Part shown: piece after piece, positions 34,134-54,334 of the stretch
How the letters are laid out: each line of letters starts with the position of its first letter
Position numbering within the stretch: the stretch's first letter is position 1
Origin: Salinivirgaceae bacterium
Lineage (GTDB): Bacteria > Bacteroidota > Bacteroidia > Bacteroidales > SZUA-534
Assembly (NCBI GenBank): GCA_017617355.1
Contig: JAFZWI010000036.1
Coordinates: 1,082-65,081, forward strand
DNA: 64,000 nt
Reading direction: 5' to 3'
The notes under the pieces: model-generated
Database searches by the model: none
What the model was told of the DNA's origin: nothing
What the model saw: the letters and a program-made list of their open reading frames with translations, nothing else
Position numbers and translations under genes: made by a program

Positions 34134-34145
34134 AACCATTTTGAT

Positions 34146-35753: not shown

Positions 35754-35755
35754 TT

Positions 35756-37204: not shown

Positions 37205-37209
37205 CAGAC

Positions 37210-38367
37210 ATGATTTTTCGGCGTACCATATTGCTTGCTGCCTTGCTGTCGGCTGTGGCGGCACCGGCCACTGCGCAGATGACAACAACAGCGAGCGGTT
37301 TGCAGTATCAGATAATTGAGCCAGGCAACAATCGTCATCCGCAACCGGGTTGGCGTGTCTGGGTTGAATACACCGGCACGCTCGACGACGGCACAGTGTT
37401 TGCCAGCACCCGCGAGACTGGCGGAATCGACCTGTGGCTGGGCTGTGGACAGCTTATAAAGGGGTGGGAGGAAGCCCTGCCGATGATAGGCGAAGAGGGG
37501 CGAATTATACTCATAGCACCCCCTTCGCAGGGTTATACTGATATGGAAGTGCCAGGTATTCCCAAAAATTCGACATTGCATTTTGAAATCAAACTTGTGC
37601 AGGCCGACAGCTTTCCGGCAATAAAACCTTTTGCCGTAAAAGGTGTTAAAAAGCAGAAAACACCAAGCGGAATAACTTGTTACTGCATTGAACATGGGCA
37701 CGGCAAACCGGCAAAGAAAGGCGACAATGTGTATGTCAACTACACGGGCTGGCTGCCTGACGGCACCATATACACCACAACCCGCACCTCGGGCGAGGCA
37801 CAGCGTTTTACGGCCGGCATGGGCGAGGCTTTTGTGGGTATGGATTCGGCTCTGCTGATGATGCCCGAAGGAGCAAAGTGCCGGTTCATTATTCCGTACA
37901 GGCTAGCCTTCGGCGACAAGGGTTATGCCAACCGCATACCTCCCAAAACTGATGTTACGCTTGACATTGAAATGATGCGCATATCGCCCGAAAAGAAAAT
38001 AACAAAATGGGATTGCACAGGCCTTGACACCATTACCACAGTCTCGGGGTTGCGCTATGTTGTGCTGGACCCCGGTTATGGCCCGCGTATTGAGCTCGAC
38101 AATATTGTAACAGCCAACTATTCTGCTTTTTATAACGATACTTTGTTTGACTCATCGGTTAAGCGTGAGTCGCCAATCCGCTATCCTGTTGGTGCGGGCA
38201 TTGTAATAGACGGGTGGGAGGAGGCCACACTGCTGATGCGCCGAGGCTCGCGTTTCCAGTTGTTTGTACCCTCGAAATTAGCTTTTGGCAGCGACGGACC
38301 GCAAATCGGCCTGCCAGCTGACGCTGATGTAATCTTCGATGTTGAGATTCTTGATGTTATGGAATGA
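37210..38367 (+). CDS. Periplasmic FKBP-type peptidyl-prolyl isomerase with three FKBP domains
   Basis: Signal peptide ...APATAQ. Three repeats follow the pattern SGLxYxxxxxGxG...V.Y.G.L.DGT.F..., each ending in ...L.F.IEL/I. Confidence 0.85.
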   Translation: MIFRRTILLAALLSAVAAPATAQMTTTASGLQYQIIEPGNNRHPQPGWRVWVEYTGTLDDGTVFASTRETGGIDLWLGCGQLIKGWEEALPMIGEEGRIILIAPPSQGYTDMEVPGIPKNSTLHFEIKLVQADSFPAIKPFAVKGVKKQKTPSGITCYCIEHGHGKPAKKGDNVYVNYTGWLPDGTIYTTTRTSGEAQRFTAGMGEAFVGMDSALLMMPEGAKCRFIIPYRLAFGDKGYANRIPPKTDVTLDIEMMRISPEKKITKWDCTGLDTITTVSGLRYVVLDPGYGPRIELDNIVTANYSAFYNDTLFDSSVKRESPIRYPVGAGIVIDGWEEATLLMRRGSRFQLFVPSKLAFGSDGPQIGLPADADVIFDVEILDVME

Positions 38368-38500
38368 TGAAAAGGGAAGATGTGAGTGTTTAATGTTTAG
38401 AGATTAATGTTTAACGAGTTTAAAGTTAGAAGTTGCAAGGCATAAGGCAAAAGTAATTACGAATTACGATGTAGGGACGCGGTATAGCATGTCTGTACAA
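38368..38500. repeat. C-poor low-complexity module plus a TGTAGGGACGCG...GTCTGT motif
   Basis: GAAAAGGGAAGATGTGAG...ATGTTTAG resembles 54336-54370. AAGTTAGAAGTTGCAAGG and TGTAGGGACGCG (38470-38481) resemble 48920-48978. Confidence 0.6.
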
Positions 38501-38510
38501 CAATCCCCGT

Positions 38511-38643
38511 CATTCCGATGAATCCCGATAACCATCGGGACGGAATCTTTATCATTTTGCAGAGATGCTGTCCCGATAGCTATCGGGGCAAGTTCAGCAT
38601 GACAGAAGACATCATTCCGATGAATCCTGATAGCTATCGTGGA
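38511..38643. repeat. REP-like palindrome cluster
   Basis: There are three hairpin units. The first is TCCCGATAACCATCGGGA (38523-38540). The second is the perfect 16-nt palindrome CCCGATAGCTATCGGG (38572-38587). The third is an imperfect copy at 38626-38642. The first and third are preceded by the identical 15-mer CATTCCGATGAATCC (38511 and 38613). Confidence 0.85.
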
Positions 38644-38773
38644 CTTCGCTGTTGAGCACATTTTTAATTCTTCATTTTTTCATTCTTCCGTACAAATAAC
38701 CTCATTACGTAAAAAATACACGCCCGATGATAAATAAAGTTGCATCTTTGAGTGATGTTTAAACATTATAGGA

Positions 38774-41700
38774 ATGGGCAAGCGGATAACACTCATATTC
38801 TCATTGTTGGCAGTATGCGCCATAGCGGTTGCCCAATCATTCCCTTTCCCTACGGAAAACCTTCAACTTTGGCTCCGTGCTGATAGTGTTGAGCTGACCG
38901 ACGGCAAGGTCTCGCAATGGTACGACCTAAGCCCTAACCAGTATGAAATAGTGCAGACAGATGCGGCGTCTAGACCTATGCCCAATGGCAAATTTTCAAT
39001 ATCATTCAACGGAACATCAACATACTTGACCGGCGGAGATATTCTTGATTTAGGAAATACAAGTTGGACATGGTTTGTTGTTGGAAAATACATCAATGGT
39101 ACAGGTGTCAACACCCCATGTTTTTTGGGGAAGTATGACCGATACAAGAATTGGAATGTGCAGCCACATTGGACATTGGGAAAAGAAGCTCGATTTATCC
39201 TTTGGAAACCTTCTTATTATTATATTGAAGAACCATCAAATTATACAGAAGAGATTTTTTCAGTATTTGAATATGAGATACTTAACAGAAATGACAACTC
39301 AACAACTATATATGTAAATAATGCCAAAAGAAGTCAGAGTAGTTATTCTCCAGGTTTTTATGACATTACCAACAATATAGACTTTAAAATAGGCGGTAAT
39401 TTGGTATTAAGTACGGCAGCGCCAAGCGGCAATTATTTGAATGGGCAAATATCCGAAATCATTGCTTTCAACACTATTGACAGCACATTGAGAGAGCAAG
39501 TTTATAATTATTTATACAACAAGTATGTAATGTCATCAGTCAATCTCGGCTTAGATATTAACATGTCATACGGCTTTGCCGACACCGCCATAACAACAGC
39601 TTACAAACCAGACTTTACATCATACTTGTGGAGCGCAGGCGAGACAGACTCAATAATTCATGTCAACAAGTCTGGAAAATATTGGGTAACAGTAACAAAC
39701 GCTTTCGGTTACACAAGTTCGGACACCATAAATGTCTATTATCCGAAGCCAACCCAATTGCACGATACCACCATTTGTGCTGGTGATATTCTTACATGGA
39801 ATGCAGCGCTTAATGGACCATACAGCTATATGTGGAGCGACGGCACAACCGAAAGTTCGTTGGATATATCAACAGCCGGCAAGTACTGGCTTACTGTTAC
39901 CGACACCGCTGGTTACGTGTGGAAGAGCGATACAATAACAGTCAGTATCGACGATTATCCGCTGACAACATCTTTCACCTCAGGCAATGCGCACATTATC
40001 GACACTGCTCTATGTAGCGGCAATGCGCTTGGGTTGGCTACAAATGCTGATGTTACCACTGCATACCAATGGAGCAATGATGCCACATCGGCACGTATCA
40101 GAATAAGCGAATCGGGCGACTACACGCTTATTTCGACAAACAATCGAGGCTGTCAGGCAACCAACACCGCTCATGTCAGCATAAAAGGCGCTGCGCCCAA
40201 AATCAATTACAGCATCAATAATTTGTGCTACGGCGACCAGACAGAGTTTGTGGGAAATGCGGCATCGGAACAAGGAATAGCATCTTATCTGTGGATTGTT
40301 GACGGGACCGACTCTCTGCCGACAAAAGATTTTCAATATGCTTTTTCGACTGTTGGAGAACACCATGTGAAATTTGAAGTGGCGTCGAACAACACCTGTA
40401 TGAACGACAGCATAATAAGCGTCAATGTTAAAGATGTTCCGGTACCCGATTTTAGTTTTATGCCCGTATGCGCAGGACTGCCAATGGATTTTGTTGCCGA
40501 CAACCGTGTGCCCAATGGCAGCTCGGTTACGCAATACGAGTGGAGCGTGAACGGAACGACTATCGGAACTGACGAGAGTCTGACTTATACCTTTGGTGGC
40601 GATGCTGATGTGCCGCTGACCTATACGTTGACCTTGGACAACGGCTGCACGGGTGAGAAAACCATTGATGTGCCAGTTAAAGCGGAATATGCCACACCAC
40701 GGCGAATGTCGTGTGTCTATCCCACAAATGGGCAGTTTGTTATGGACGATACTGTTGATTTTTTGTGGAATACAGACACTGACATTCTCTATTACGAATT
40801 GATAACATCAGCCGATGCATCGTTCGCCGCAGCCGACACCATTTGCTGCTCGGCAAACAACTATTCAGTAGCTGCGGAGCAATTTGGCGATACTACTTAT
40901 TGGAAAGTGCGGGCTTATAATCATTGTATGAGGGCAGGGGAGTCGACACCATATATGTTCCGAAAAACTATAGGTGGACAAATGAATTTTGCATCCGACA
41001 CCACACTTCAGCTTTGGCTCCGAGCCGACAGCGTTGAGCTGACCGACGGCAAAGTTTCACGCTGGTACGACTTGAGTTCTAACCAGTATGAGATAGTGCA
41101 GACAGATGCGGCGTCTAGACCTATGCCCAATGGCAAATTTTCAATGTCATTCAATGGTACATCAACATATTTGACTGGCGGGAACATTCTTGATTTAGGA
41201 AATAGTGGTTGGACGTGGTTTATTGTTGGAAAGTACATCAATGGTACAGGCGTAAACACCCCATGTTTTTTGGGAAAGTATGACCGATACAATAATTGGA
41301 ATGGACAACCACATTGGACATTGGGAAAAGAAGCAAGATTTATCCTTTGGAAACCATCGTATTATTATATCGAGGAGCCATCAAATTATACAGAGGAGGA
41401 TTTTTCAATATTTGAATATGAATTACTTAATAGAAATGATAACACCACGACTATATATGTGAATAAAGACAAAAGAAGTCAGAGTGTTTATCCTCCAGGT
41501 TTTTATGACATTACCAATAATATAGACTTCAAAATAGGCGGTAATTTGGTGCTAAGCACGGCAGCGCCAAGTGGCAACTATTTGAACGGTCAAATATCCG
41601 AAATCATTGCATTCAATACTATTGACAGCACGTTGAGAGAGCAAGTTTATAATTATTTATACAACAAGTATGTGCTGTCAGCAGTCAATCTCGGCTTAGA

Positions 41701-44131
41701 TATTAACATGTCATACGGTTATGCCGACACCGCCATAACAACAGCCTACAAACCAGATTTCGTAAAATATCAATGGAGCACAGGCGAGACCGACTCTGTA
41801 ATTCATGTCAACAAATCGGGAAAATATTGGGTAACAGTAACAAATGCTTTCGGTTACACAAGTTCCGACACCATAAATGTCTATTACCCCGAGCCAACGC
41901 AATTGCACGACACCACCATTTGTGCTGGCGATGTTCTTACATGGAATGCCGTGCTTAATGGCACGTATAGTTATCTGTGGAGCGACGGTTCAACCGAAAG
42001 CTCGTTAGCGATAACAACCGCGGGCGAGTACTGGCTCACTGTTACTGATACTGCTGGCTTCAAATGGTATAGCGACACAATAACAGTTGCGGTGGATAGT
42101 TTCCCCGTTGCGGCACGGCTTGAGGGCGACCGGATAAATTCGTGTGTCGGCAACAACATCTATCTGCAAAACGGCTACGAGGAGGCTGTTGGCTATCTTT
42201 GGAGTGACGGTAGCACAGCCAACCATTTGGCGGTTACCGAATCGGGGCAGTATTGGGTGAAAGTGACCGACAACATAGGCTGTAAAGCTACTGATACGGC
42301 CTATATCAGCGTTTTGGGCATTGCGCCTACGCCCGATTTCACACATACAGCACTCTGCGCCACTCGCGATATTGAGTTCAGCAATCTGTCGCACTCAAAC
42401 GACGATTCGCAGATAACAGCTTACCTATGGCAGTTTGGCGACGGCGGCGTGTCGGTTGAACAAAATGCAACTCATAGTTATAGGTTGAGCGGCACCTACA
42501 GCATGCAGCTAACGGTGTCGAGCAACAACGGCTGCAGCAATATATTGAAAAAAACGCTCATTATCGACTCGCTGCCGACAGCGGCTTTTGCGCCGGCACA
42601 GGCTTGCAGCTTCAACGATGTACAGTTTACCGACCTCAGTACCACGCCTGTCAACTATCTGACTGAATGGCAATGGACAATGAACGACAACGTCTTTGCC
42701 GAGCGCAATCCGCACACCATGTTCCGCACGGCGGGCGATATGCCAGTGCAGCTTGTTGTCGGTACCGCCCATGGCTGCACCGACACTCTGCGCTCAAGCA
42801 TCAGCATCCTTCAAGGACCGGATGTTGATTTCAACTACAGTGCCACTTGCCTTAAAACGCCTGTATATTTCTCGAACAGAACCATTTCGGCATTCAACCT
42901 TGCAGCAAGCTATCAATGGCTGATTGATGATGAGGAAAAAAGCACGGTTCGAAGCCCGAATTTCACTTTCAACGATACGGGAACCTACAAGGTTACGCTG
43001 ACAGCAAAGCAGCTGGCCAATGGTTGTGTGGCAACTAAAAGCCGATATATCAGCATTTTACCGCCGCCTGATGTTAGAATAAGTGCGGGGCTGATTTGTC
43101 AGAACCAGCCAACTGAGATAACCGCAACCAACATTGAGCCAGGCAATATTGTGAGCCAGTGGGTGTGGACTTTTGATAATGAAATCAAGATAAATAGTCA
43201 GGCAGCTACCATAAGTTTTGAAAAGGAGGGAAAGCATAACATATCGGTAACGGCTACCGATACAGTCGGTTGCACCGACAGGGGTGACACTACCATTGTT
43301 GTCCGTCCCACACCAACAGCACAGTTCGCTGCCATGCCTGCACGCGGCCCCGTGCCTTTCAAGACTGAATTGTTGAACCAATCGACTAATGCTGATTCGT
43401 ATGAGTGGCATATAAGCGACGGTGCCACATCGCAAGCTGAGGAGCTGGCGCATACTTTTGCCGACAGCGGCACTTTCAGAATAACACTTGTAGCCAAAAA
43501 CCTCTACGGCTGTGCTGACACCATACGCCACATTGTTACTGCCATTGTGCCTAACACCGATTTGGTTCTTATCAATGCCGAATCAGATTTAAGTGACGGC
43601 TACATCAGCATCTCGGCATTGGTGGCCAACAACAGCCCCTATGACCTTGCCAACACCGTCATCAATTGGACCGACAATCTTGGGCACAATGTGCGCGAAG
43701 TGATAGCCGATACCATAAAATCGGGGAAAATCTATCATTACACGTTTACAGCAAAAATAGGGGTGGACGCGCCTAACCGCTTGAAATACATCTGCGTTAA
43801 TGTTGAACCGGCAGTTAATGATGATAATGCGCCCGACAACAACCAGTTCTGCATAACAATGAATCCCAATGAGTTCAGCATTGAGCCGGCAAAACCAAAT
43901 CCGGCCGATAATCGCTTGAAAATAAGTTATGTGATTCCAGAAGAAGGAACCGTAAAAATAGAACTTTTCAATCAGACGGGAATACTTGTCGGCATACCGT
44001 TCAATGGAACGGCAAACGCAGGCTACAACGAATTTATGTTTGATTCAAGCCTTTTGAAATCAGGGATGTACCATTATCGGATAACATACGACGGACACAG
44101 CCGTGTGGGGGTGGTAATGGTGATGCATTGA
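38774..44131 (+). CDS. Giant T9SS-sorted surface protein: 2x LamG-like lectin domain, many about-45-aa YxWSxGxT repeats, multiple PKD domains, type-A T9SS CTD
   Basis: 1785 aa with a signal peptide. LamG-type segments begin LQLWLRADSVELTDGKV...FNGTSTYL (twice). PKD signatures are present (WQFGDGGVSVEQNATHSY...GTYSMQLTV). The CTD reads KPNPADNRLKISY...KIELFNQTG...LKSGMYHYRI. Confidence 0.9.
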   Translation: MGKRITLIFSLLAVCAIAVAQSFPFPTENLQLWLRADSVELTDGKVSQWYDLSPNQYEIVQTDAASRPMPNGKFSISFNGTSTYLTGGDILDLGNTSWTWFVVGKYINGTGVNTPCFLGKYDRYKNWNVQPHWTLGKEARFILWKPSYYYIEEPSNYTEEIFSVFEYEILNRNDNSTTIYVNNAKRSQSSYSPGFYDITNNIDFKIGGNLVLSTAAPSGNYLNGQISEIIAFNTIDSTLREQVYNYLYNKYVMSSVNLGLDINMSYGFADTAITTAYKPDFTSYLWSAGETDSIIHVNKSGKYWVTVTNAFGYTSSDTINVYYPKPTQLHDTTICAGDILTWNAALNGPYSYMWSDGTTESSLDISTAGKYWLTVTDTAGYVWKSDTITVSIDDYPLTTSFTSGNAHIIDTALCSGNALGLATNADVTTAYQWSNDATSARIRISESGDYTLISTNNRGCQATNTAHVSIKGAAPKINYSINNLCYGDQTEFVGNAASEQGIASYLWIVDGTDSLPTKDFQYAFSTVGEHHVKFEVASNNTCMNDSIISVNVKDVPVPDFSFMPVCAGLPMDFVADNRVPNGSSVTQYEWSVNGTTIGTDESLTYTFGGDADVPLTYTLTLDNGCTGEKTIDVPVKAEYATPRRMSCVYPTNGQFVMDDTVDFLWNTDTDILYYELITSADASFAAADTICCSANNYSVAAEQFGDTTYWKVRAYNHCMRAGESTPYMFRKTIGGQMNFASDTTLQLWLRADSVELTDGKVSRWYDLSSNQYEIVQTDAASRPMPNGKFSMSFNGTSTYLTGGNILDLGNSGWTWFIVGKYINGTGVNTPCFLGKYDRYNNWNGQPHWTLGKEARFILWKPSYYYIEEPSNYTEEDFSIFEYELLNRNDNTTTIYVNKDKRSQSVYPPGFYDITNNIDFKIGGNLVLSTAAPSGNYLNGQISEIIAFNTIDSTLREQVYNYLYNKYVLSAVNLGLDINMSYGYADTAITTAYKPDFVKYQWSTGETDSVIHVNKSGKYWVTVTNAFGYTSSDTINVYYPEPTQLHDTTICAGDVLTWNAVLNGTYSYLWSDGSTESSLAITTAGEYWLTVTDTAGFKWYSDTITVAVDSFPVAARLEGDRINSCVGNNIYLQNGYEEAVGYLWSDGSTANHLAVTESGQYWVKVTDNIGCKATDTAYISVLGIAPTPDFTHTALCATRDIEFSNLSHSNDDSQITAYLWQFGDGGVSVEQNATHSYRLSGTYSMQLTVSSNNGCSNILKKTLIIDSLPTAAFAPAQACSFNDVQFTDLSTTPVNYLTEWQWTMNDNVFAERNPHTMFRTAGDMPVQLVVGTAHGCTDTLRSSISILQGPDVDFNYSATCLKTPVYFSNRTISAFNLAASYQWLIDDEEKSTVRSPNFTFNDTGTYKVTLTAKQLANGCVATKSRYISILPPPDVRISAGLICQNQPTEITATNIEPGNIVSQWVWTFDNEIKINSQAATISFEKEGKHNISVTATDTVGCTDRGDTTIVVRPTPTAQFAAMPARGPVPFKTELLNQSTNADSYEWHISDGATSQAEELAHTFADSGTFRITLVAKNLYGCADTIRHIVTAIVPNTDLVLINAESDLSDGYISISALVANNSPYDLANTVINWTDNLGHNVREVIADTIKSGKIYHYTFTAKIGVDAPNRLKYICVNVEPAVNDDNAPDNNQFCITMNPNEFSIEPAKPNPADNRLKISYVIPEEGTVKIELFNQTGILVGIPFNGTANAGYNEFMFDSSLLKSGMYHYRITYDGHSRVGVVMVMH
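38860..39960 (+). repeat. Internal segmental duplication, copy 1
   Basis: Aligns without net indel to 41005-42105 at an offset of exactly 2145 nt (715 codons). Identity is high by eye and includes a 53-nt identical run (38948-39000 = 41093-41145). Confidence 0.9.
41005..42105 (+). repeat. Internal segmental duplication, copy 2
   Basis: See copy 1. Confidence 0.9.
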
Positions 44132-44161: not shown

Positions 44162-45283
44162 CTACATCACAAAATTTTCAATATTATCGGAGTTAACTAC
44201 CAAAAAATCAGAATTTTTGTATGCATCGCTGAATGTTTTTGGCAGCTTTGGATTCTTTTTCGGGCTCCATTTAATCTCACACGCAAGAAGTTTGCCGTCC
44301 GATTCCTCAAGATAATCAATCTCTTGCTGCTGTTTGGTTCGCCAAAAATAACTGTTAACCCACAATCCGCTGTATGCGATATGCTTCATACGCTCGGCCA
44401 CTACAAAGTTCTCCCACAAATGGCCAATATCCTGCCGCACTTCGGGCAAGGTGAAATCGGCAATCAGCGCATTTCGAATGCCATTGTCATAAAAATAAAT
44501 TTTGCGGACGGTCTTCAACTCATTACGCAAATTACGGGCAAACGAAGGCAATCGGAAAATCACATAACACTGCTCAAGCAGCGATATATATTTTTCAACG
44601 GTTTTTGAATCCATTGAGCAAATATCGCCCAACTCGTTGAACGACACCTGCGAGCCAATTTGATATGCCAACGCCCGAAGCAATGTCAGCAGTTTGTCGG
44701 GGTGCTTTATATTTTCCCAAGCCAATATGTCTTTATAGAGATAGGCATCAGTCAGTTGTTTGAGCACTTGTTTCTCATTACCGCTACTTGTCACAACTTC
44801 AGGATAATAGCCATATACAAGGCGTTGAGGCAAAAGCCGTTTCTCTTTTATAAGTCCATGATGTTGAACCATTTCAGCAAATGACAAAGGAAACATTTGA
44901 TATTGCCATTTCCGTCCAGTTAATGGTTCGTTAACCTCGTTGGCCAAGTCGAAGGCCGAACTGCCAGTCGCAATCAGTTGAACATCTTTTATTTGGTCGG
45001 TAATGAGTTTCAGTCGCAAGCCTATGTCTTTAATCCGTTGCGCCTCGTCAATTACAATGACTCTGTTATTGCCGAAAAGTTTTTTCAGTCTGTCTGCCGA
45101 CGTGTCTTCAAACATCTTCTGCACATCCAATTCGTCGCCGTTCAGCCATAAACAACCATTGCCACCTGAAACCAAACTGTTAAGCAGTGTGGTTTTTCCC
45201 ACTTGCCGTGCACCCAGCAGAACCAATGCTTTGCCGCAGAACAATTTGTTTTTGATAGTATCTTCCAATAGCCGTTTTATCAT
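44162..45283 (-). CDS. AAA-type ATPase with DUF4143-like C-terminal domain
   Basis: The ATG at 45283 gives MIKRLLEDTIKNKLF..., with Walker A GARQVGKTTLL and Walker B VIVIDEAQ. The C-terminal half is typical of the abundant Bacteroidales ATP-binding protein / DUF4143 family. Confidence 0.8.
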   Translation of the reverse strand: MIKRLLEDTIKNKLFCGKALVLLGARQVGKTTLLNSLVSGGNGCLWLNGDELDVQKMFEDTSADRLKKLFGNNRVIVIDEAQRIKDIGLRLKLITDQIKDVQLIATGSSAFDLANEVNEPLTGRKWQYQMFPLSFAEMVQHHGLIKEKRLLPQRLVYGYYPEVVTSSGNEKQVLKQLTDAYLYKDILAWENIKHPDKLLTLLRALAYQIGSQVSFNELGDICSMDSKTVEKYISLLEQCYVIFRLPSFARNLRNELKTVRKIYFYDNGIRNALIADFTLPEVRQDIGHLWENFVVAERMKHIAYSGLWVNSYFWRTKQQQEIDYLEESDGKLLACEIKWSPKKNPKLPKTFSDAYKNSDFLVVNSDNIENFVM

Positions 45284-45302
45284 ATGCACTCATTTTTAAT
45301 CG

Positions 45303-45685: not shown

Positions 45686-46804
45686 TTAGTGCGTTCCGAA
45701 AATTTTTGAAAGAGGTTGCATAAAATCGTTAATCATATTCTCTTCATTATAGTTACCCGTCGCAAACATATAACCATTGTGCCCCATTTCATTTCTAATA
45801 TCTGGGTTTTGTAATAGCATTATTTTATTAGCAAGGTCTTCTGGATTATTTTTTTCATATAGATAGCCATTATATCCATTTTTAATAAGTTCAACACTTC
45901 CTCCAACATTTGCGGCAACCACAGGAATTGAATGTTTCATTGCTTCTATTGCCACTCTGCCAAATGATTCACATGAACACACTAATACTATATCTGTTTC
46001 AGAATATATCGAATTAACATCTTCGAGAAATTGTATAAAATGCACATTGGTATCAACTGCTAGTTCACGTAGCTTTTGGTAGTAATCGTTTTTTTCGTTA
46101 TGCCAACCAACAATGAACAATTCCATTTCGGTTCCATTTTTTTTTAGTATTTTAAATGCTTTAACGGCCTCATCTTGAGCTTTATGTGGAGACACAGCAC
46201 CAATTATTGAAATTTTCGGTTTCCCCAAACAACTTCTATCTAATGATTCTTGTTTACAAAAGACTTGTTGCCGTACTTTGTAAATGTCTTTTTTAATATA
46301 TCGAGAACACTCTTTTAATAGAAAATCAGAATTAACATACACATAATCGGATAATGCGCTAATGATTTTCATTGAAAGCCAATTGCCCAACATAAAATTA
46401 GCTTGCAAGTTTTTTTCTACCAATTCTCTAATATGCCAACAATGATGTTTTTTTTCAATTTTTGCGGCTATAGCAAAACTGCATATCACTGAAGTGTTAG
46501 TGATTATTACATCTGGCGAAAAATCCTTTATTATCTTTCTTGCAGACGATATGCAATATCTAAGTATCCAAAACAGGTCTCTTTTACTATATTTTTCTGG
46601 ATACCATTTTTTTATCCACCAAAATTGCTCACAGTAAAATAAAGACACTTTCTCGGGTAATAATGTCTCTAATTGTCCTTTGCCGGGCAGTACTACACCT
46701 ATTTTTGTATCATTTTGTTTTGCTATGGCCGACACTATTTCTGCTAATGACCGCTCTCCACCAGCCATTCCTGAAGAATGTGAAACAAAAAGAATTTTAT
46801 GCAT
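45686..46804 (-). CDS. Glycosyltransferase family 4
   Basis: 372 aa. N-terminal FVSHSSGMAGGERS, and a C-terminal GT1/GT4 signature (ESFGRVAIEAMKHSIPVVAANVGG). The sequence is visibly AT-rich. Confidence 0.85.
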   Translation of the reverse strand: MHKILFVSHSSGMAGGERSLAEIVSAIAKQNDTKIGVVLPGKGQLETLLPEKVSLFYCEQFWWIKKWYPEKYSKRDLFWILRYCISSARKIIKDFSPDVIITNTSVICSFAIAAKIEKKHHCWHIRELVEKNLQANFMLGNWLSMKIISALSDYVYVNSDFLLKECSRYIKKDIYKVRQQVFCKQESLDRSCLGKPKISIIGAVSPHKAQDEAVKAFKILKKNGTEMELFIVGWHNEKNDYYQKLRELAVDTNVHFIQFLEDVNSIYSETDIVLVCSCESFGRVAIEAMKHSIPVVAANVGGSVELIKNGYNGYLYEKNNPEDLANKIMLLQNPDIRNEMGHNGYMFATGNYNEENMINDFMQPLSKIFGTH

Positions 46805-46873
46805 TTTACCCTTCGTTATTATTAGTTTTATTCACCGTAATACAAGGAAGTATTATGACTGTGGTGCATTGTG

Positions 46874-47632
46874 TTATAAGTCTGTGGTCAAAAAGCGAAG
46901 GTTCTTTGAACAAAATAATGTGTGTTCCTTTGATGACCAATATGTGCGCTGATAGAATTCAATATTATTATCTTTTAAAATGCGTTCTATTTCGGTTATT
47001 GTTTCTTGTTCACCGGGTCTTCCAACATCATCAATCATAATGCAAAAAGATTCGGTTAAACAACTTGGTATAAGATGTAGAATTTGAGACCGCGAATAGT
47101 GTTCACTACCAAAAGGACCATCAACAAAAATGAAATCATATTTTTTGCCTAATAACTCTTTGCAATTATCTTTATATGACAAGGTTTTATGTCCGTTATA
47201 AATTGTTTCTTGCAATTCAGTGTTATAAATATTTACGGGATATTTGTCTTTAACAAGTTCTTTGAAAAAACAAATCCACTCCTCATCGTGCTCATAAGTA
47301 ATAGCTTGCACGTCATTATAATGATTTGCATATTGATAAATCATTCTGGAAGATTGTCCCAAACCAAATTCCAAAATGTTTTTTGGATGAATAGAATCTA
47401 ATATGCGGTACATCGTGTATAATGCACCATAATCTAATGCCGCCCCACCTGCAGAAAAAGATTGTATTTTTAACCATTCAGAATCCTTAATTGTATCAGA
47501 AAAGCGATGTGCATTAAGAATTTCTTTTTGCATTATTTCAATTCCACGAATCATTTTTTTCAGTTCATTCTGTTCGCTTTGAACAGAATTAATCCCTTGT
47601 ATGCGCCTTATTAACTTCAATAATCTATTCAT
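46874..47632 (-). CDS. Probable class I SAM-dependent methyltransferase-fold protein with N-terminal coiled-coil-like segment
   Basis: Motif-I-like ILEFGLGQSS, then later FIFVDGP. It starts 1 nt after the wzt stop. The function assignment is tentative. Confidence 0.55.
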   Translation of the reverse strand: MNRLLKLIRRIQGINSVQSEQNELKKMIRGIEIMQKEILNAHRFSDTIKDSEWLKIQSFSAGGAALDYGALYTMYRILDSIHPKNILEFGLGQSSRMIYQYANHYNDVQAITYEHDEEWICFFKELVKDKYPVNIYNTELQETIYNGHKTLSYKDNCKELLGKKYDFIFVDGPFGSEHYSRSQILHLIPSCLTESFCIMIDDVGRPGEQETITEIERILKDNNIEFYQRTYWSSKEHTLFCSKNLRFLTTDL

Positions 47633-47633
47633 T

Positions 47634-48914
47634 TCAGATTTGTTTGCTTATTTGAAAATCAGTAATATAATACCCTTGATTAGGTGGCATTATTCTGCCA
47701 TTCTTAAAATAATCATTGTAGCTGATGTGCAATTTCGCCACATTTCCAACCCAGTCCGCCAACTCGCCATCAACTAATGAACACAAATTGACATTATAAG
47801 TTCCTTCATTTAACATTAGTTTAGGAATGTAAAAATTAACATACCCATTGTCCAACACTATTTTGTCGGAATACAAATATGTGCTTAACCAAGTTACTCT
47901 TTCTCCAAGAGAATTGTTTATTCCAATATCTAATTGAGATGTATTTGAATTTTGGAAACGACTTGTTGTTTCTATTTTAATTTTAATTATTATTTCATCA
48001 CCAACAGAAAAGTTGTCTTTAGAACATCCTTGTAAATCAGTGAATTTTATATCAACAAGGCGGATAGACCCATTTCCTTTTCTATCAGAAACTGCACCTA
48101 AAGCTATTTTTGAACGTTCCTCCTGCTCTGCTAAATATCTATCAATTACACTATCAATATTGCCTTGATAATCAATTATTCCGTTTTTCAAAATATATCC
48201 ATTCTTGCACAGATTGCGTACGGCTGTCATATTATGACTAACAAACAGCACCGTTCTTCCCTCGCCTTTGCTCACATCCTGCATTTTGCCAATAGCTTTT
48301 TTCTGGAATTCGGCATCGCCAACGGCAAGAACCTCGTCAACCACAAGGATTTCGGGGTCGAGGTGGGCGGCAATAGCAAAGCCAAGGCGCACTGTCATAC
48401 CGCTTGAATAACGTTTCACGGGAGTGTCAATATAGCGTTCGCAGCCCGAGAAATCAACAATCTCATCGAGTTTGCGGGTAATCTCGGCGCGTGTCATTCC
48501 CATAATGGCGCCATTCATATAGATGTTCTCGCGGCCAGTCATTTCGGGGTGGAAACCTGTGCCCACTTCAAGTAGCGAGGCTATACGGCCACGGTATTTT
48601 ATGGTTCCTGTGGTGGGCTTGGTAACTCGCGAGAGCAGTTTCAGCAATGTTGATTTGCCTGCGCCGTTCTTGCCGATTATGCCCACCACATCGCCCTGCT
48701 CAATCTCCATATTTATGTCCTTCAGCGCCCACACATACTCTGAATTTCCTTTGCTGGCGCGGTCATTGGTCTCGCCAATTTTCAGATATGGGTCTTCGCG
48801 GCGCAGCACGCTCGTTGTCCACCAGCGGTTGAGGTCGTGGCTAAGCGTTCCAGTAGAGATTACCCCAAGGCGGTATTGCTTCGAAACGTTTTCTATTTTT
48901 ATTGCTGTAGGCAT
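47634..48914 (-). CDS. wzt: Polysaccharide ABC exporter ATP-binding protein (Wzt/TagH type) with C-terminal glycan-binding-type domain
   Basis: Walker A GKNGAGKSTLLK, signature YSSGM, Walker B ILVVDE, then a beta-rich extension of about 170 aa, as in Wzt proteins that carry a C-terminal carbohydrate-binding domain. Confidence 0.88.
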   Translation of the reverse strand: MPTAIKIENVSKQYRLGVISTGTLSHDLNRWWTTSVLRREDPYLKIGETNDRASKGNSEYVWALKDINMEIEQGDVVGIIGKNGAGKSTLLKLLSRVTKPTTGTIKYRGRIASLLEVGTGFHPEMTGRENIYMNGAIMGMTRAEITRKLDEIVDFSGCERYIDTPVKRYSSGMTVRLGFAIAAHLDPEILVVDEVLAVGDAEFQKKAIGKMQDVSKGEGRTVLFVSHNMTAVRNLCKNGYILKNGIIDYQGNIDSVIDRYLAEQEERSKIALGAVSDRKGNGSIRLVDIKFTDLQGCSKDNFSVGDEIIIKIKIETTSRFQNSNTSQLDIGINNSLGERVTWLSTYLYSDKIVLDNGYVNFYIPKLMLNEGTYNVNLCSLVDGELADWVGNVAKLHISYNDYFKNGRIMPPNQGYYITDFQISKQI

Positions 48915-48919
48915 TTTTT

Positions 48920-48978
48920 AAGTTACAAGTTATAAGTTACAAGTTTTCGCTTGTAGGGACGCGATTCATCGCGTCTGT
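48920..48978. repeat. AAGTTACAAGTTAT tandem plus TGTAGGGACGCGATTCATCGCGTCTGT palindromic motif
   Basis: AAGTTACAAGTT occurs twice (48920-48945). GACGCGAT/ATCGCGTC forms an 8-bp stem. TGTAGGGACGCG is shared with 38470-38481. Confidence 0.7.
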
Positions 48979-49041
48979 TATTTCATTTCAATTTCCAAAG
49001 TAACGTTTTTCAGTATTAATCTGTTACGTTTTTTGACACAT

Positions 49042-50346
49042 TTATTGTTCTTTTCCGTCAAACCACGCCCGTACCGCATAAAGCGGAAGATTGGTCACCG
49101 TGTTATTCTGGCGGAAGGGCAGCAACGACGTCTTTACCGCCACTTCAGGATTGTGCTCTTTGCAAAACGAGCCGAACGATTTGCTTTGCAAATTCTTGCC
49201 CGATTTTGCTTCGACGGGAACCGCCCGTTGGCCACATTGCACAAGAAAATCAATCTCTTGGCGCGAATTCTCCTTGCTGAAATAGGACACTGGAAGCTCG
49301 CGAATGGTTTTCAGTTCCTGCAAAACATATTGCTCGGTGAACGCTCCCTGGTATTCCTCAAATACGCCATCGCCAATCAGAACGGAATCGGCGCTGGTAT
49401 TGCTCATCGCACCAAACAACCCACAATCGAGTACAAACAATTTGAACGCCGAAAAATCCTCATAGTATTGCAGCGGCGCTTCAGGTTTGCTGACGCGGTT
49501 TACTTTGTACACCAACCCCGCATCGCACAACCATTGCAAGGCAATCTCGAACTCGCGTGCCCGTGCGCCTTCTTTCACAACTCCATAAATGAATTTTTTG
49601 TTCTCTTTCGCCAATTGACCTGGTATAGAATTGAAAACCATGCTGATACGCATAACTTCGCGCGGCGGTGCGTGTTTGCCAATGTCTTGAATGTAGTTGT
49701 CAAGAATCTCGTTTTGCATATAGCGAATAGTCCACATCGGTTCGCCATCGATATAAGCCTGCACAATTTCGGGCATTCCGCCCACATAGAAATAATGGCG
49801 CAGACAATCAAGCAACTGCTCGTGGATAACAGCGGCTGTCGGCCAATCCTGTTCATCCAACACTTTGGCGTATGCATCTTTGCCTATCGCTTTCAGAAAT
49901 TCGGCAAACGACAACGGATACATCTGCATAGTGTTGACTTTTCCGACAGGATACGAAATGTCCTCGTGTAACATTAAGCCTAACAGCGAACCCGCTACCG
50001 CAATATGCTGGTCGGGGGCATCTTCACAAAAATATTTCAGTGCCTGAATAGCACGCGGTACTTCCTGCACCTCGTCGATTATTATCAGTGTCTGACCTGC
50101 AACCACTGGCACTTGTGTTATGACCTCAATGGCTTTCAATATCCGCTGCACGTCGAAATCGGCAAACAAAGTCGCCATTCGGGACTCTCTGTCGCAATTT
50201 ATGTAAGCCACATTTTTATAGGCAACTTCGCCAAAATGCTTCAGAATCCAAGTCTTGCCAACTTGCCTTGCACCATTAAGAATCAGTGGTTTACGACGTT
50301 CGCTCTGTTTCCATTTCAACAAATCCTGCAAAATGCTCCGCTCCAT
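49042..50346 (-). CDS. AAA-type ATPase with DUF4143-like C-terminal domain (second, divergent paralog)
   Basis: 434 aa with Walker A GARQVGKTWIL and Walker B LIIIDEVQ. Confidence 0.8.
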   Translation of the reverse strand: MERSILQDLLKWKQSERRKPLILNGARQVGKTWILKHFGEVAYKNVAYINCDRESRMATLFADFDVQRILKAIEVITQVPVVAGQTLIIIDEVQEVPRAIQALKYFCEDAPDQHIAVAGSLLGLMLHEDISYPVGKVNTMQMYPLSFAEFLKAIGKDAYAKVLDEQDWPTAAVIHEQLLDCLRHYFYVGGMPEIVQAYIDGEPMWTIRYMQNEILDNYIQDIGKHAPPREVMRISMVFNSIPGQLAKENKKFIYGVVKEGARAREFEIALQWLCDAGLVYKVNRVSKPEAPLQYYEDFSAFKLFVLDCGLFGAMSNTSADSVLIGDGVFEEYQGAFTEQYVLQELKTIRELPVSYFSKENSRQEIDFLVQCGQRAVPVEAKSGKNLQSKSFGSFCKEHNPEVAVKTSLLPFRQNNTVTNLPLYAVRAWFDGKEQ

Positions 50347-50369
50347 AAACTTTCAGTTTAATTTGCTCA

Positions 50370-50377
50370 CAAATATA
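50370..50377 (-). promoter_or_regulatory. Candidate -7 box (TATATTTG on the minus strand)
   Basis: The plus strand reads CAAATATA and lies 24 nt upstream of the ATG at 50346. Confidence 0.3.
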
Positions 50378-50405
50378 TACAAAAAGCATACTGACATACA
50401 ATTGT

Positions 50406-50514
50406 TTCACATTTTATGTACGTCTTTTTGGCAAAACTTCACATTTTATGTACGACTTTTTGCAAAAATTGCACATTTTATGCACGAGTTTTGGCGAGAA
50501 TTCACATCTAATGG
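50406..50514. repeat. 31-32-bp tandem repeat x3.4 upstream of the second ATPase gene
   Basis: Units begin at 50406, 50438, 50469 and 50501 (partial). The consensus is TTCACATTTTATGTACGNCTTTTTGGCAAAAN. Confidence 0.85.
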
Positions 50515-50526
50515 TTAGGGGTTGCG

Positions 50527-50592
50527 TTTTAGTTTACGTTTACGTTAGTGTTAGTGTCAACGTTATCGTCATCGTTTTTCGTCATCGTTAAA
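50527..50592. repeat. ACG/TAA short-period low-complexity module, inverted copy of 31401-31482
   Basis: The reverse complement reads TAACGATGAC...CGATAAC...TGACACTAAC...AACGTAAACGTAAAC and aligns block by block with 31410-31482. Confidence 0.7.
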
Positions 50593-50594
50593 TA

Positions 50595-51437
50595 TCACAC
50601 CGTATCCATAAAATCTTTTTCTACTTTATTGAAGATTATAGTGCCAAGTAGAAGCGTTATAATCATGAAAATCAAACTGTAAAGTAGCCAGCCCCACGAG
50701 AACACACCACTGCCGATAGCTCCGTATTTGAATGTCTCAATTATGGAAGTCATCGGGTTAAGTTGGAAAATCCATTGTTTGTCGGCAGGCATTGTGCTAA
50801 GCGGGTAGATTACCGGTGTGGCGTACATCCATAGCTGCACTCCGAATTGCAAGAGGAATGTCAGGTCGCGGTATTTGGTTGTCATTGAGGAGAATATAAT
50901 GCCGAAGCCTAAGGCTAATCCGGCACTCATTATTACAAGCAACGGGAAAAGAAAAGCATACCAGTTTGGAGTAATGCCCACCCCCTTAAACGCATATACA
51001 ATGTATATTATAAGGAATATCGCGAATTGAATGAAGAATTTCACAAGGTTCGAAATGGTAACTGAAATAGGTACCACCAGACGCGGAAAATACACCTTGC
51101 CAAAAACATTCTGGTTGGTGGTGAATGTGCCGGATGTCTTATTCAGGCAGTCAGCAAAATAGTTCCATAGTATAATTCCCGCAAAGTAGAAGAGTGGTCC
51201 GGGAATTCCGTCGGTGGAGATGCCGGCCAGATTTCCGAATACGAACATAAACATTACGGTTGTAAGTATGGGCTGAATCACAAACCACAGCGGACCAAGA
51301 ATTGTTTGCTTGTACATAGTGACAATGTCACGCTTTACGTACATGTAAATCAAATCCTTATAGGCAATAACCTCGCGAAGGTTGAGGCTTAGCAAACGGT
51401 TGTTAGGAGTTATTTCTGTATAGCCGTTTTTATCCAT
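50595..51437 (-). CDS. wzm: ABC-2-type polysaccharide exporter permease
   Basis: 280 aa with 6 TM segments and a typical Wzm/TagG N-terminus (...YKDLIYMYVKRDIVTMYKQTILGPLWFVIQP). Confidence 0.88.
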   Translation of the reverse strand: MDKNGYTEITPNNRLLSLNLREVIAYKDLIYMYVKRDIVTMYKQTILGPLWFVIQPILTTVMFMFVFGNLAGISTDGIPGPLFYFAGIILWNYFADCLNKTSGTFTTNQNVFGKVYFPRLVVPISVTISNLVKFFIQFAIFLIIYIVYAFKGVGITPNWYAFLFPLLVIMSAGLALGFGIIFSSMTTKYRDLTFLLQFGVQLWMYATPVIYPLSTMPADKQWIFQLNPMTSIIETFKYGAIGSGVFSWGWLLYSLIFMIITLLLGTIIFNKVEKDFMDTV

Positions 51438-51480
51438 TTTTTATTAAGAGTAAGCAAAACAACTTGCTGATAATCAACAA

Positions 51481-52278
51481 TTACTCTGCATCTTTCACGC
51501 ACCTTACCGATATGGCGTTTCGCGGACTCTCGTAGTAGCGGAACGGCTTTTTCAAGCTTTTGTGGTAATAGAGCTTCCAAACGTTGTCATGCGCCTTGCT
51601 TGACGACCAGAATGATGCTGAGTAACCGGCGTTCTGGTAATCGCCATTGTAGAATCCGGCATAAACCAGTTCAAACGGATTGATGAGGTTCTCCACAACC
51701 GAATCATTGCAAAGGCTGACCGACAGGTCTTGCAGCTCCTTGTCAGTAGGGATGTGCCAGCCGTCGGGGCAGAGGCCTTGTGCGCCCTCATCGGTGCTGC
51801 CGTTCATGGCGGCGTCCCAAGTGTAGAGAAGTCCCAGTTCGGGAGCGTCGGGGTTTTGGAAATATTTGATTTCGTCGCCGTTGCTGTTTGTTGTGGCGCG
51901 AAGGTTTTCTGTCATCCATGCGCGGCCGTTCACAATGGTCGTCTTGTAGCTGTTGCCCTCGTTGTCGATGCAGAGCGGGCAGTCAGGCCCTTTCACTGTT
52001 ATCGATTCGGTGCCGGAGTTGCCGCGAGCGTCGGTTACCGTTACGGTGTAGACGCCGGCCTCAAGGTCGCTAATTTCGGCCACTGCCTGATTGTTCGACC
52101 ATTTGATTGCGTACGGAGCTTTGCCGCCGCTAATGGTTATCGCTATTGAACCGTCGTTGCTTCCGTAGTCGGAAAGCGGGGTCACATTTGCTTCAATTTC
52201 AATAGGCTTGCGGTTGCAACTTGCTAATATTGCACCAGTTAGAGCAAGCAACAATAAGGATTTACAATAAATTCGCAT
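51481..52278 (-). CDS. Lipoprotein with SprB-repeat-like N-terminal Ig module and FISUMP (Fibrobacter succinogenes major paralogous) domain
   Basis: Lipobox ILASC. DGSIAITISGGKAPYAIKWSNNQ is SprB-repeat-like. CPDGWHIPTDKELQDL...FWSSS...SVRCVKD are FISUMP hallmarks. Confidence 0.8.
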   Translation of the reverse strand: MRIYCKSLLLLALTGAILASCNRKPIEIEANVTPLSDYGSNDGSIAITISGGKAPYAIKWSNNQAVAEISDLEAGVYTVTVTDARGNSGTESITVKGPDCPLCIDNEGNSYKTTIVNGRAWMTENLRATTNSNGDEIKYFQNPDAPELGLLYTWDAAMNGSTDEGAQGLCPDGWHIPTDKELQDLSVSLCNDSVVENLINPFELVYAGFYNGDYQNAGYSASFWSSSKAHDNVWKLYYHKSLKKPFRYYESPRNAISVRCVKDAE

Positions 52279-52347
52279 ATTATATCGTTACAAAAAACGT
52301 TTAAAAATAGCAAAAACACATTTATTTGATAATTGTCGGTGCAATTT

Positions 52348-53097
52348 ATGAGAAAAATAGTTTGTGCTGTTTTCTTTTTGACGGTGTTGTTTTCGGCTTG
52401 TGCGCAAGATTCTGTTCCCGCCCGAATCGATTTGCACGGAGTTATTTTGAATGCCGACGGCTTGCAGCCAGTTTATAATGTCAATGTCTATGTGCGACAC
52501 GGATACGGCACAACATCGAACAACAACGGATATTTCAACTTGCGTTGCGCCAGTGGCGATACGGTGGTGTTTTCGCACGTAGGCTATAGGCTTGTGAGGT
52601 TTGTTGTGCCCGACACCATTTTTGCCGAAAACCGGACTATCGGCATCATTATGCAGACCGACACTATTCTTCTGCCTGAGGTTGTGGTGCTTCCGTTTGT
52701 CACCTATGCGCGTATGAAGTACGAGGTGGCTAATATGGAACCCGATGCCGAACTGCAGACGGCTTTTTACAATGTCTCTGAAATTGTTGATTTGGCTTTG
52801 AGCCAGCCTGGTACCACTTATGACGCTCCTGCGCAACAACTTTCAGCCTATTCGGAGCGATTGCAAAACGCTGGTATGTTCGCGCCTAACCAAACAGTGA
52901 GTCTGATAGGCTTGAATAAAGGTGTTGTGGCATACTTGCGCCAGGTTAATTCGCGAAGAAAAAATGTCCCGACACCCGGTTATCGCAACGCGCAAAAACA
53001 GCTGCAGATGATTACCGATGTTCGCAATTTTGTTGTGAAACAAGCTGATACACTTGCTGTGCAACCTGCCGCCGATACACTCAGAACCACTGAGTAA
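52348..53097 (+). CDS. Secreted CarboxypepD_reg-like domain protein
   Basis: The ATG at 52348 gives MRKIVCAVFFLTVLFSACAQ, followed by HGVILNADGLQPVYNVNVYV...NNNGYFNL...GDTVVFSHVGY. Confidence 0.7.
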   Translation: MRKIVCAVFFLTVLFSACAQDSVPARIDLHGVILNADGLQPVYNVNVYVRHGYGTTSNNNGYFNLRCASGDTVVFSHVGYRLVRFVVPDTIFAENRTIGIIMQTDTILLPEVVVLPFVTYARMKYEVANMEPDAELQTAFYNVSEIVDLALSQPGTTYDAPAQQLSAYSERLQNAGMFAPNQTVSLIGLNKGVVAYLRQVNSRRKNVPTPGYRNAQKQLQMITDVRNFVVKQADTLAVQPAADTLRTTE

Positions 53098-53182
53098 GTC
53101 CTTCTGTTTTGACTCCGTTTGTCCATTTTGAAAATCAAATTTGTCGTTACGAGATATCCGTATCTATTCTCAACAATTTTAA

Positions 53183-53190
53183 TACTTTTG
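53183..53190 (+). promoter_or_regulatory. Candidate -7 box TACTTTTG
   Basis: Matches TAnnTTTG and lies 20 nt upstream of the ATG at 53210. Confidence 0.3.
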
Positions 53191-53209
53191 CGGACTTACT
53201 TTTTTGCTG

Positions 53210-54334
53210 ATGATTATTGCAGTCAACACGCAGACACTGCTGAAAGACAAACTTGAAGGTCTGGGAAGTTTCACCGATGAAATCATGCGCCGCATGGTTC
53301 GGAATCATCCTGAGCACCAATTTCTGTTCATCTTCGACCGCGACTGGGACAGTTCCTTCGTCTATGCCGATAATGTGATACCGGTAAAGACCTTCCTGCC
53401 GTCGCGTCATCCGGTGTTGTGGTATAGCCGTTTCGAATTCATTATACCTAACTTGTTGAAACGGCACAAAGTGAGTCTTTTCCTGTCAACCGACGGTTAT
53501 ATGCCTGTGCATCCGGCGGTTAAAACGTATAATGTAATTCACGACATAGGCTTTGTGCACGACCCTCAGAGCCAGCCGTTCCTTATAAACAGGTATTACA
53601 ACCATTATTTCCCGATTTTCGCCCGCAGTGCCGACAGACTTGGTACCGTGTCGGAGTATTCAAAGGCCGATATCGTGCGCACTTGGGATATCAATCCAGA
53701 CAAAATCGATGTCATATACAATGGTGTGAAGACGGTTTTTGCGCCGCTTGACGAGGCTGCGAAGAAAGAGGTTCGCGAAAAAACAACGGGCGGCAGTCCT
53801 TATTTCGTTTTCGTTGGGTCGCTTAATCAGCGCAAGAATGTTGAAGGCCTTTTGCGCGCGTTCGACCTGTTCAAACAGAAGGGCAATTTCCCGCACAAAC
53901 TTGTCATTGTGGGCGAGTGTATGTGGTCGATGACAAGCATCGATAGCGAGATTGAACAAATGGAACATGCTGACGATGTGGTGTTTATGGGTCGTCTTCA
54001 GCCCGATGCCCTGCGCGATGTAACGGCAAGTGCCGATGCGTTGGTGCTGCCTTCGTTCCTTGAGGGGTTTGGCGTGCCGATTGTCGAGGCTATGAACTGC
54101 GATGTGCCGGTGATAACCTCAAACTGCACCTCAATGCCCGAAGTGGCCGGTGATGCCGGACTTCTCATCAATCCCCATTCCGATGAGGAGATAGCCAATG
54201 CCATGGTCCAATTGGCAACCGACGCGGAGCTGCGGCAGAAACTGATTGAAAACGCCAAAATTCAGCGGCAGAAATTCTCGTGGGACAAGTCGGCTGTCGA
54301 TTTGTGGAACGGAATGATGCGGCTAATGGAATAA
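53210..54334 (+). CDS. Glycosyltransferase family 4 (mannosyltransferase-like)
   Basis: The ATG at 53210 gives MIIAVNTQTLLKDKLEGLG. C-terminal EGFGVPIVEAMNCDVPVITSN signature. Confidence 0.85.
   Translation: MIIAVNTQTLLKDKLEGLGSFTDEIMRRMVRNHPEHQFLFIFDRDWDSSFVYADNVIPVKTFLPSRHPVLWYSRFEFIIPNLLKRHKVSLFLSTDGYMPVHPAVKTYNVIHDIGFVHDPQSQPFLINRYYNHYFPIFARSADRLGTVSEYSKADIVRTWDINPDKIDVIYNGVKTVFAPLDEAAKKEVREKTTGGSPYFVFVGSLNQRKNVEGLLRAFDLFKQKGNFPHKLVIVGECMWSMTSIDSEIEQMEHADDVVFMGRLQPDALRDVTASADALVLPSFLEGFGVPIVEAMNCDVPVITSNCTSMPEVAGDAGLLINPHSDEEIANAMVQLATDAELRQKLIENAKIQRQKFSWDKSAVDLWNGMMRLME

Follow-up and report, generated by a model that had tools for sequence, protein, structure and literature searches.

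A stretch of 64,000 nucleotides (nt) from a Salinivirgaceae bacterium (assembly GCA_017617355.1, contig JAFZWI010000036.1, positions 1,082 to 65,081 of the forward strand), here called the window and numbered from its first letter, contains at 38774..44131 a gene for a surface protein of 1785 amino acids (aa), in which a unit of 1.1 kb occurs twice in the same reading frame. From the translation of the open reading frame (ORF) and scans with Pfam and NCBIfam, the layout of the protein is signal peptide-A1-B1-A2-B2, where A1 and A2 are the two copies of the repeated unit A, and B1 and B2 are the modules that follow them. The gene and all its parts described here lie on the + strand.

Copy A1 (aa 30-390, 38861..39942) was delimited by repeat detection and the identity profile, and consists, according to an AlphaFold2 model, Foldseek and the positions of a recurring motif, of a jelly roll, a helix and two beta-sandwich mini-domains with the motif YxWSxGxT. 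It is followed by the spacer module B1 (aa 391-744, 39943..41005), which holds a third mini-domain, PKD-like domains (Pfam PKD_4 and PKD_3) and a C-terminal beta domain and which, judged by its identity to orthologues, is not homogenised. Then comes copy A2 (aa 745-1105, 41006..42087), located in the same way by repeat detection and identity profile, and the protein ends with module B2 (aa 1106-1785, 42088..44131). This too holds a third mini-domain, after which Pfam finds five PKD domains, and Pfam and TIGR04183 find the C-terminal sorting domain (type A) of the type IX secretion system (T9SS). Inside A1, the profile of identity to orthologues defines a hypervariable core (aa 61-270, 38954..39583), with its peak of variability at aa 121-210. 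The core of A2 (aa 776-985, 41099..41728) has the same identity profile.

The two copies, which start exactly 2145 nt (715 codons) apart, align in frame and without gaps over 1082 nt, and are 87.7% identical in nucleotides and 90% identical in amino acids. The first-pass annotation, made from the letters alone, had described this in-frame repeat and its offset, and the self-alignment agrees with it; of the boundaries that it gave, 38860-39960 and 41005-42105, the location holds, while the right ends lie about 18 nt too far. The perfect run of 53 nt that it mentioned, which is the longest exact run between the copies, is found at 38948..39000 with its partner at 41093-41145. When copy 1 is compared with the whole window by blastn, the search returns the two copies and nothing else, each with E = 0. 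The edges of the repeat are sharp, in that the identity at an offset of 2145 nt has the background value (12-37%) right outside the tract. The segments 3' of each copy, B1 and the start of B2, are collinear with 26% aa identity over 216 residues (E 1e-21), which bears out the earlier description of these stretches as strongly diverged with an architecture in common. That they have remained collinear at only 26% identity fits an ancient duplication of the whole module.

The gene product is probably a T9SS-exported cell-surface protein with two small immunoglobulin-like mini-domains after each jelly roll, as judged from its sequence. The N-terminus is hydrophobic (MGKRITLIFSLLAVCAIAVAQS in the translation), and a putative signal peptide at aa 1-21 (MGKRITLIFSLLAVCAIAVAQ, 38774..38836) can be read directly off the translation. 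The sorting domain spans aa 1708-1778 (nt 43895-44107) and is recognised both by Por_Secre_tail (PF18962; 30.5-33.3 bits, cut-off 27, aa 1708-1776) and by TIGR04183 (29.2 bits, cut-off 23, aa 1708-1778). PKD_4 scores 169 bits over five stretches (E 2e-50) and PKD 88 bits over four. PKD_4, Por_Secre_tail and TIGR04183 thereby all exceed their cut-offs, as would be expected from the domains that the first-pass annotation had named.

Its reading of each copy as a LamG-like domain with YxWSxGxT repeats is right for the motifs, two of which lie in copy 1 (aa 284, aa 352) and two in copy 2 (aa 999, aa 1067), with a third after each copy at aa 431 and aa 1141. For the domain itself the agreement comes from structure prediction. 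Pfam is marginal here, since Laminin_G_2 reaches 24.0 bits for the whole protein (cut-off 22.9) with no single stretch passing and 15.1 bits on unit A, and precomputed matches to PF13385 or PF02210 are present on some homologues. The AlphaFold2 model of unit A, built from a 23-sequence alignment (predicted local distance difference test 85.1, predicted template modelling score 0.74), shows the jelly roll, the helix and the two small beta sandwiches, and a Foldseek search of the Protein Data Bank (PDB) with the jelly roll returns the Hc fragments of tetanus and botulinum neurotoxins, SraP and NanB (probability 1.0, E ~1e-8), whereas phmmer with unit A finds no match among PDB chains. The model thus supports a ConA/LamG-like lectin jelly-roll fold for the N-terminal part of unit A, and the core of this jelly roll may bind a ligand.

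A protein from an independent contig (P0001, 1783 aa) has no substitutions relative to the window and lacks the residues DG in the motif YLWSDGST of A2. This is an in-frame indel of 6 nt at window positions 41984-41989 (aa 1071-1072) between near-identical strains or assemblies.

Age of the copy pair

The differences between A1 and A2 in the window number 133 over 1082 positions, of which 90 fall on third codon positions and 86 are transitions, and their spectrum is symmetric. With differences that are symmetric, dominated by transitions and mostly at third codon positions, a diversity-generating retroelement was rejected as their source, and no reverse transcriptase or recombinase occurs among the neighbouring ORFs scanned. 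The Nei-Gojobori estimates are 0.54 synonymous substitutions per synonymous site (dS) and 0.054 nonsynonymous substitutions per nonsynonymous site (dN), so that dN/dS is 0.10, and both copies appear to have been under purifying selection since they were last homogenised.

To place this value in time, consider the divergence between the window and its relative L016. Here dS is 0.36 in B1, 0.61 in B2 and 0.5-1.6 in the flanking genes, and in the A1 core it is saturated (~3) with a dN of 0.39. The dS of the copy pair is thus comparable to that between the window and this relative, from which follows that the last homogenisation in the window should be roughly of the age of the species split. It would have involved the whole 1082-nt unit (dS ~0.5). 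When the unit is divided, dS between the copies is 0.43 in the core, 0.98 in the 5' part and 0.66 in the 3' part, a modest contrast (Fisher P=0.037).

The claim that the duplication is recent must therefore be given up, both on account of this dS and on account of the two-module layout, which is found with an orthologous B1 in proteins down to about 30% identity. Neither can the run of 53 nt be taken as a sign of recency, as it is unremarkable at the given identity: codon shuffles yield a longest run with mean 41 and standard deviation 9 (P=0.12). What the first-pass annotation overlooked is that the homogenised unit holds a strain-hypervariable core, and that the tract in the window carries no sign of ongoing conversion.

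Core types, exact tracts between the copies and module number in the family

A protein search gave 818 matches at E <= 1e-10, and the best 120 of these were taken further. They come from metagenome-assembled genomes (MAGs) of Salinivirgaceae, Bacteroidales and other Bacteroidota, many of them from rumen studies, and are annotated 'PKD domain-containing protein'; a literature search found no paper on this protein family. More than 80 of the best 120 have two or three A units with B1-like spacers, and their overall identities span 26-78%.

The six closest orthologues (P0002-P0007) are 82-90% identical to the window protein in B1 and 84-91% in B2, and only 52-66% in A. The loss of identity is confined mainly to aa 61-270 and aa 776-985: the core at aa 61-270 is 27-58% identical to the six orthologues when the rest of the protein is 72-96% identical, and the lowest values of the whole protein, 24-32% against 72-97% everywhere outside the two cores, are found at aa 121-210. 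Inside each of these same orthologues, the A1 core and the A2 core are 91-98% identical to each other.

This pattern extends to 40 two-module proteins for which cores and backbones were compared. The core identity between two proteins is uncorrelated with their backbone identity (Spearman 0.13), and its median is about 23% even where B1 is 80-90% identical. Within a protein, the median identity of the A1 and A2 cores is 100%, and it is at least 90% in 25 of the 40. The nearest neighbour of an A unit is its sister copy for 131 of 184 units, and in the clade of the window the mean core identity is 0.92 within proteins against 0.45 between them.

The unit also contains its own control. When it is split into parts and nearest neighbours are counted in three clades, a core has its own sister as nearest neighbour in 14/14 cases in clade A, to which the window belongs, 20/24 in clade B and 28/42 in clade C, while the 3' mini-domain part is nearest to its positional counterpart in another protein in 9/14, 14/24 and 40/42 cases, respectively. 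In one clade, the core is homogenised in 28 of 42 units and the adjacent, better conserved mini-domains in none of the 42. Since the core clusters with its sister and the 3' part clusters by position, the duplication must be old and the core must be evolving in concert. On these comparisons the layout A-B1-A-B2 appears to be ancient, and the two A copies would predate the split of the lineages compared.

How the cores are kept alike is seen at the DNA level in six two-module orthologues (the window, L016, L017, L020, L022 and L023), to which L021 was added as a same-species partner of L020. The longest exact run between A1 and A2, in gene coordinates, is 1067 nt in L017 (P0013; nt 88-1154), 623 nt in L020 (P0008; nt 145-767), 621 nt in L023 (P0012; nt 169-789) and 519 nt in L022 (P0011; nt 307-825), and it is short in L016 (P0002; 79 nt, nt 581-659) and in the window (nt 175-227). 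In L017 the run spans nearly the whole of unit A. Beyond the run, unit A is strongly diverged in L020, L022 and L023, with dS ranging from 0.5 to more than 1 or to saturation. L020 and L021 belong to one species, with flanks 97% identical, and what separates them is a single block of some 600 nt, the A2 core, which in L020 is equal to the A1 core of the gene itself. Identical tracts that end at different points amid old sequence are the mark of gene conversion and cannot be produced by selection at the protein level; the sequences therefore support recurrent intragenic gene conversion between the A1 and A2 cores across the family. Of the two alternatives in the first-pass annotation, support thus goes to the first, in which the module was duplicated long ago and gene conversion homogenises its initial 1.1 kb: sister copies resemble each other more than orthologues do, synonymous sites included, and the tracts are 519-1067 nt long.

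Cores also seem to have moved between lineages. Core types were defined by average linkage on aa 91-240 at 50% identity, in place of single linkage, which chained nearly everything, and 87 types were obtained among 212 A units. Types 8, 9, 14 and 27 are found on both backbone clades; P0004 and P0013 are 58% identical in B1 and 79% in their cores; and L016 and L019, which are of one species, are 96-98% identical in the flanks and 80-87% in the gene itself. As dN/dS is about 0.1 throughout, the diversity corresponds to old types that have been shuffled, with no detectable burst of point substitutions.

The number of modules varies as well. P0017 is a one-module allele of 1078 aa, identical in two assemblies, and it occupies the same slot as the window gene and P0002 (OmpA/PD40 - hypothetical - DUF5723 - FKBP - gene - AAA_14/DUF4143), with flanks 96-98% identical to those of the two-module locus L016, where the allele has 1809 aa. 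Several lineages have three-module proteins, about 2450-2630 aa long, whose spacers B1 and B1' are 36-100% identical. In one of them, L024, 1.8 kb are duplicated in tandem with 100% identity at an offset of 2181 (gene nt ~1220-3000 and ~3400-5180), so that either a module was added very recently or the assembly took a wrong path. The suggestion that such repeats lead to deletion and expansion thus holds at the level of the family, where there are one-, two- and three-module alleles and where alleles of 1078 and 1809 aa are found at one locus. The accompanying warning about assembly is consistent with MAG RGIG9951, in which the gene is broken across two contigs, L001 ending inside B1 and L003 starting in the middle of A2.

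Taken together, the gene is probably an ancient two-module surface-protein gene with exchangeable core types, repeated intragenic conversion between A1 and A2 and occasional unequal crossing-over. The jelly-roll core would then persist in the population as many deeply diverged types, which are swapped between lineages by homologous recombination in the conserved flanking sequence. The two cores in one gene would repeatedly be equalised by non-reciprocal recombination between the A copies, presumably RecA-dependent, and unequal crossing-over between the A copies would give rise to one-, two- and three-module alleles. Diversifying or frequency-dependent selection, by phage, grazers, host or substrate, may drive the diversity of types and favour two matching cores.

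Several observations weigh against this account. The case for conversion is built on the relatives and not on the copy pair of the window, in which there is no signal of recent conversion, the longest exact run being 53 nt and the differences being fairly evenly spread. The A1 and A2 cores are unlike (<50%) in 7 of the 40 two-module proteins, which means that homogenisation is not universal and that selection for matching cores is unproven. Positive selection is undetected, dN/dS being about 0.1 in every comparison and orthologous cores being saturated, and only the polymorphism of types points to diversifying selection. Finally, all relatives are short-read metagenome assemblies, where the merging of bubbles may inflate the identity of long repeats and where module number may be mis-resolved over perfect repeats, L024 and the one-module alleles being most exposed.

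Consider now what other explanations would require. If a 1.1-kb piece had been copied once in this lineage, in a recent partial duplication, and were now diverging, the window copies would diverge uniformly without long identical patches and the boundaries of the repeat would be sharp, as they are. Such a one-off event is nevertheless very unlikely. More than 80 homologues, the most distant at about 30% identity, have the layout A-B1-A-B2 with an orthologous B1 (82-90% in close relatives), and across proteins the 3' parts of the unit are positionally orthologous. A dS of 0.54 is not recent, and a single copying cannot explain that each lineage has its own core type at both positions. Equally hard to credit is that the copies have been held alike by selection without conversion, either through parallel or convergent evolution or through strong purifying selection since an old duplication. 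The low dN/dS of 0.10 between the copies agrees with it, and the fact that cores match more often than the adjoining mini-domains is a hint that matching matters. However, selection on the protein leaves synonymous sites free, whereas the relatives show exact runs of 519-1067 nt, and in the window dS between the two cores is 0.43 when orthologous cores are saturated (dS ~3).

Import as the sole process, by which genes or segments come from donors with matched cores or the same foreign core is brought in twice, fares somewhat better and still appears improbable. Core types are common to distant backbones, and the lower identity of the gene than of its flanks within one species means that import clearly occurs. 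Yet import merely shifts the origin of the matching cores to the donor, the end points of the exact tracts vary by lineage, and for L020 and L021, which differ in the A2 core with the A2 of L020 equal to its own A1 over 623 nt, one internal copying is simpler. Least credible of all is that the repeat or its copy number stems from metagenome misassembly. The source is evidently a metagenome-type assembly, and such repeats do break assemblies, as in RGIG9951, but an assembler cannot invent 133 differences over 1082 positions, 90 of them at third codon positions and with the frame kept in both copies; P0001, on its independent contig, is the same protein minus 2 aa, and the layout recurs in assemblies from many studies. 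Silent-cassette variation of the pilE/pilS kind was considered separately and rejected for the window, as tblastn and blastn of unit A against its 64 kb return only the two copies within the gene.

Neighbourhood of the gene

Outside the repeat, the gene has a conserved context in a neighbouring surface-glycan cluster (45686..54334), identified by Pfam scans. It comprises a GT1 glycosyltransferase (45686-46804), a methyltransferase-like ORF whose Pfam matches are below cut-off (46874-47632), the Wzt ABC ATPase (47634-48914), the Wzm ABC-2 permease (50595-51437), a Fib_succ/SprB protein (51481-52278) and a GT4 glycosyltransferase (53204-54334). An AAA_14/DUF4143 gene lies inside the cluster on the - strand (49042-50346), and a paralogue, also on the - strand (44162-45289), directly follows the surface-protein gene; L016, L018 and L022 have homologues of these ATPase genes in the corresponding position. 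A glycan cluster adjoins the gene at every locus examined (the window and L016-L026), with protein identities of 29-100%, and its gene content differs between strains, as do the wider contexts. Wzm and Wzt genes are present at eight loci (the window, L016, L018/L019, L020, L021, L022, L024 and L026), L017 has an ABC-2 permease and an ABC ATPase, and at L023 and L025 the cluster shows just genes for glycosyltransferases or sugar modification. On its other side, the gene is bordered by rplM-rpsI-rpsB-tsf in one clade.

Directly upstream of the gene in the window, on the + strand, is an operon-like run (31650-38367) that encodes an OmpA/PD40 protein (827 aa), a protein of 535 aa without family, a DUF5723 protein (482 aa) and a triple-FKBP protein (385 aa); this linkage is kept only in the clade of the window (L016, L018 and L019). 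Farther upstream, an ORF of 467 aa on the + strand (28523-29926) has sub-threshold matches to CBM_4_9 and Por_Secre_tail and possibly encodes another T9SS cargo.

The intergenic region upstream of the gene contains, at 38524-38639, a palindromic element with two exact matches to CCCGATAnCnATCGGG and an imperfect copy at 38626-38639. The orthologous stretches of L016 and L018 are without it, and it could be a small mobile repeat or one like the repetitive extragenic palindromic (REP) elements. An invertible promoter was also considered for this region, in the form of a 10-nt inverted repeat at 38405-38414 and 38759-38768, and was rejected, as the repeat is absent from the intergenic regions of L016 and L018.

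Known systems and meaning for the family

Surface proteins of Gram-positive cocci of the alpha C/Rib, SasG/Aap, Esp and Bap type have repeats within the gene that are nearly identical at the DNA level, and the number of these repeats varies between strains by homologous recombination. The likeness to the present family is that repeats within a gene are kept alike and that their copy number varies. The coccal repeats are head-to-tail tandem arrays of stalk domains and are structural, whereas here there are one to three units of 1.1 kb, separated by an unhomogenised spacer of 1.06 kb, and the homogenised part is a lectin-like, strain-hypervariable domain. In the cassette-based antigenic variation of Neisseria pilE/pilS, Borrelia vlsE and Anaplasma msp2, which proceeds by non-reciprocal recombination, a variable segment between conserved sequences is likewise replaced non-reciprocally. 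In contrast to these systems, there are no silent donors in the 64-kb window, donor and recipient lie in one expressed reading frame, and the time scale is evolutionary and not that of switching within a clone.

As far as its abstract describes them, GRINS are gene-conversion tracts between the modules of assembly-line polyketide synthases, with intense similarity and discrete boundaries (PMC8256042). They share with the family, on the evidence of that abstract, intragenic conversion between dispersed homologous modules of one very large gene; they differ in residing in biosynthetic enzymes and not in a secreted surface protein, and a population-level library of hypervariable types does not figure in the abstract (PMC8256042). 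At the level of the protein, the N-terminal part of unit A resembles by its predicted fold, through Foldseek, the HcN of clostridial neurotoxins, the L-lectin module of SraP and the CBM40 of NanB, from which it differs in sequence (8-14% identity, with Pfam Laminin_G marginal). The protein as a whole resembles T9SS type A cargo with PKD domains in its Por_Secre_tail/TIGR04183 domain and its five PKD domains, to which the putative signal peptide may be added. The system belongs to two known kinds, the concerted evolution of repeats within surface-protein genes and conversion tracts between modules as in GRINS. It differs from both in that the units are dispersed, that the tracts are centred on a strain-hypervariable lectin core, and that the family is one for which no paper was found.

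A further question is whether selection keeps the two lectin cores matched because both act jointly on one strain-specific ligand, for which the glycan of the adjacent cluster is the candidate. Hints in this direction are that in the clade mentioned above 28 of 42 cores and 0 of 42 mini-domains are homogenised, and that the gene is linked to the glycan cluster at protein identities of 29-100%. Against it count the 7 of 40 proteins with unlike cores and the loci L016 and L023, which have a common core type (0.75) and no similar flanking ORFs. In the small sample of ten loci with defined A units, which L025 lacks, co-variation of core type and content of the glycan cluster finds no support. On balance, joint action of matched cores on the glycan is doubtful. 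If it were true, the locus would be a type-switching system of recognition or anchoring, in which a new core is imported and then copied to the second position.

For work on genomes, the repeats mean that these genes can break short-read assemblies and that modules may be miscounted, so that gene catalogues and pangenomes need care. For the study of recombination, one gene offers a natural example of strain hypervariability, discrete conversion tracts and a module number between 1 and 3, in which the B1 spacer and the mini-domains, being unconverted, serve as internal controls. The family itself consists of abundant, uncharacterised surface proteins of Bacteroidales in rumen and gut metagenomes. 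Its core types could serve to mark strains, and they point to a ligand or antagonist as the driver of their diversity, be it a phage, a protist, a host factor or a glycan.

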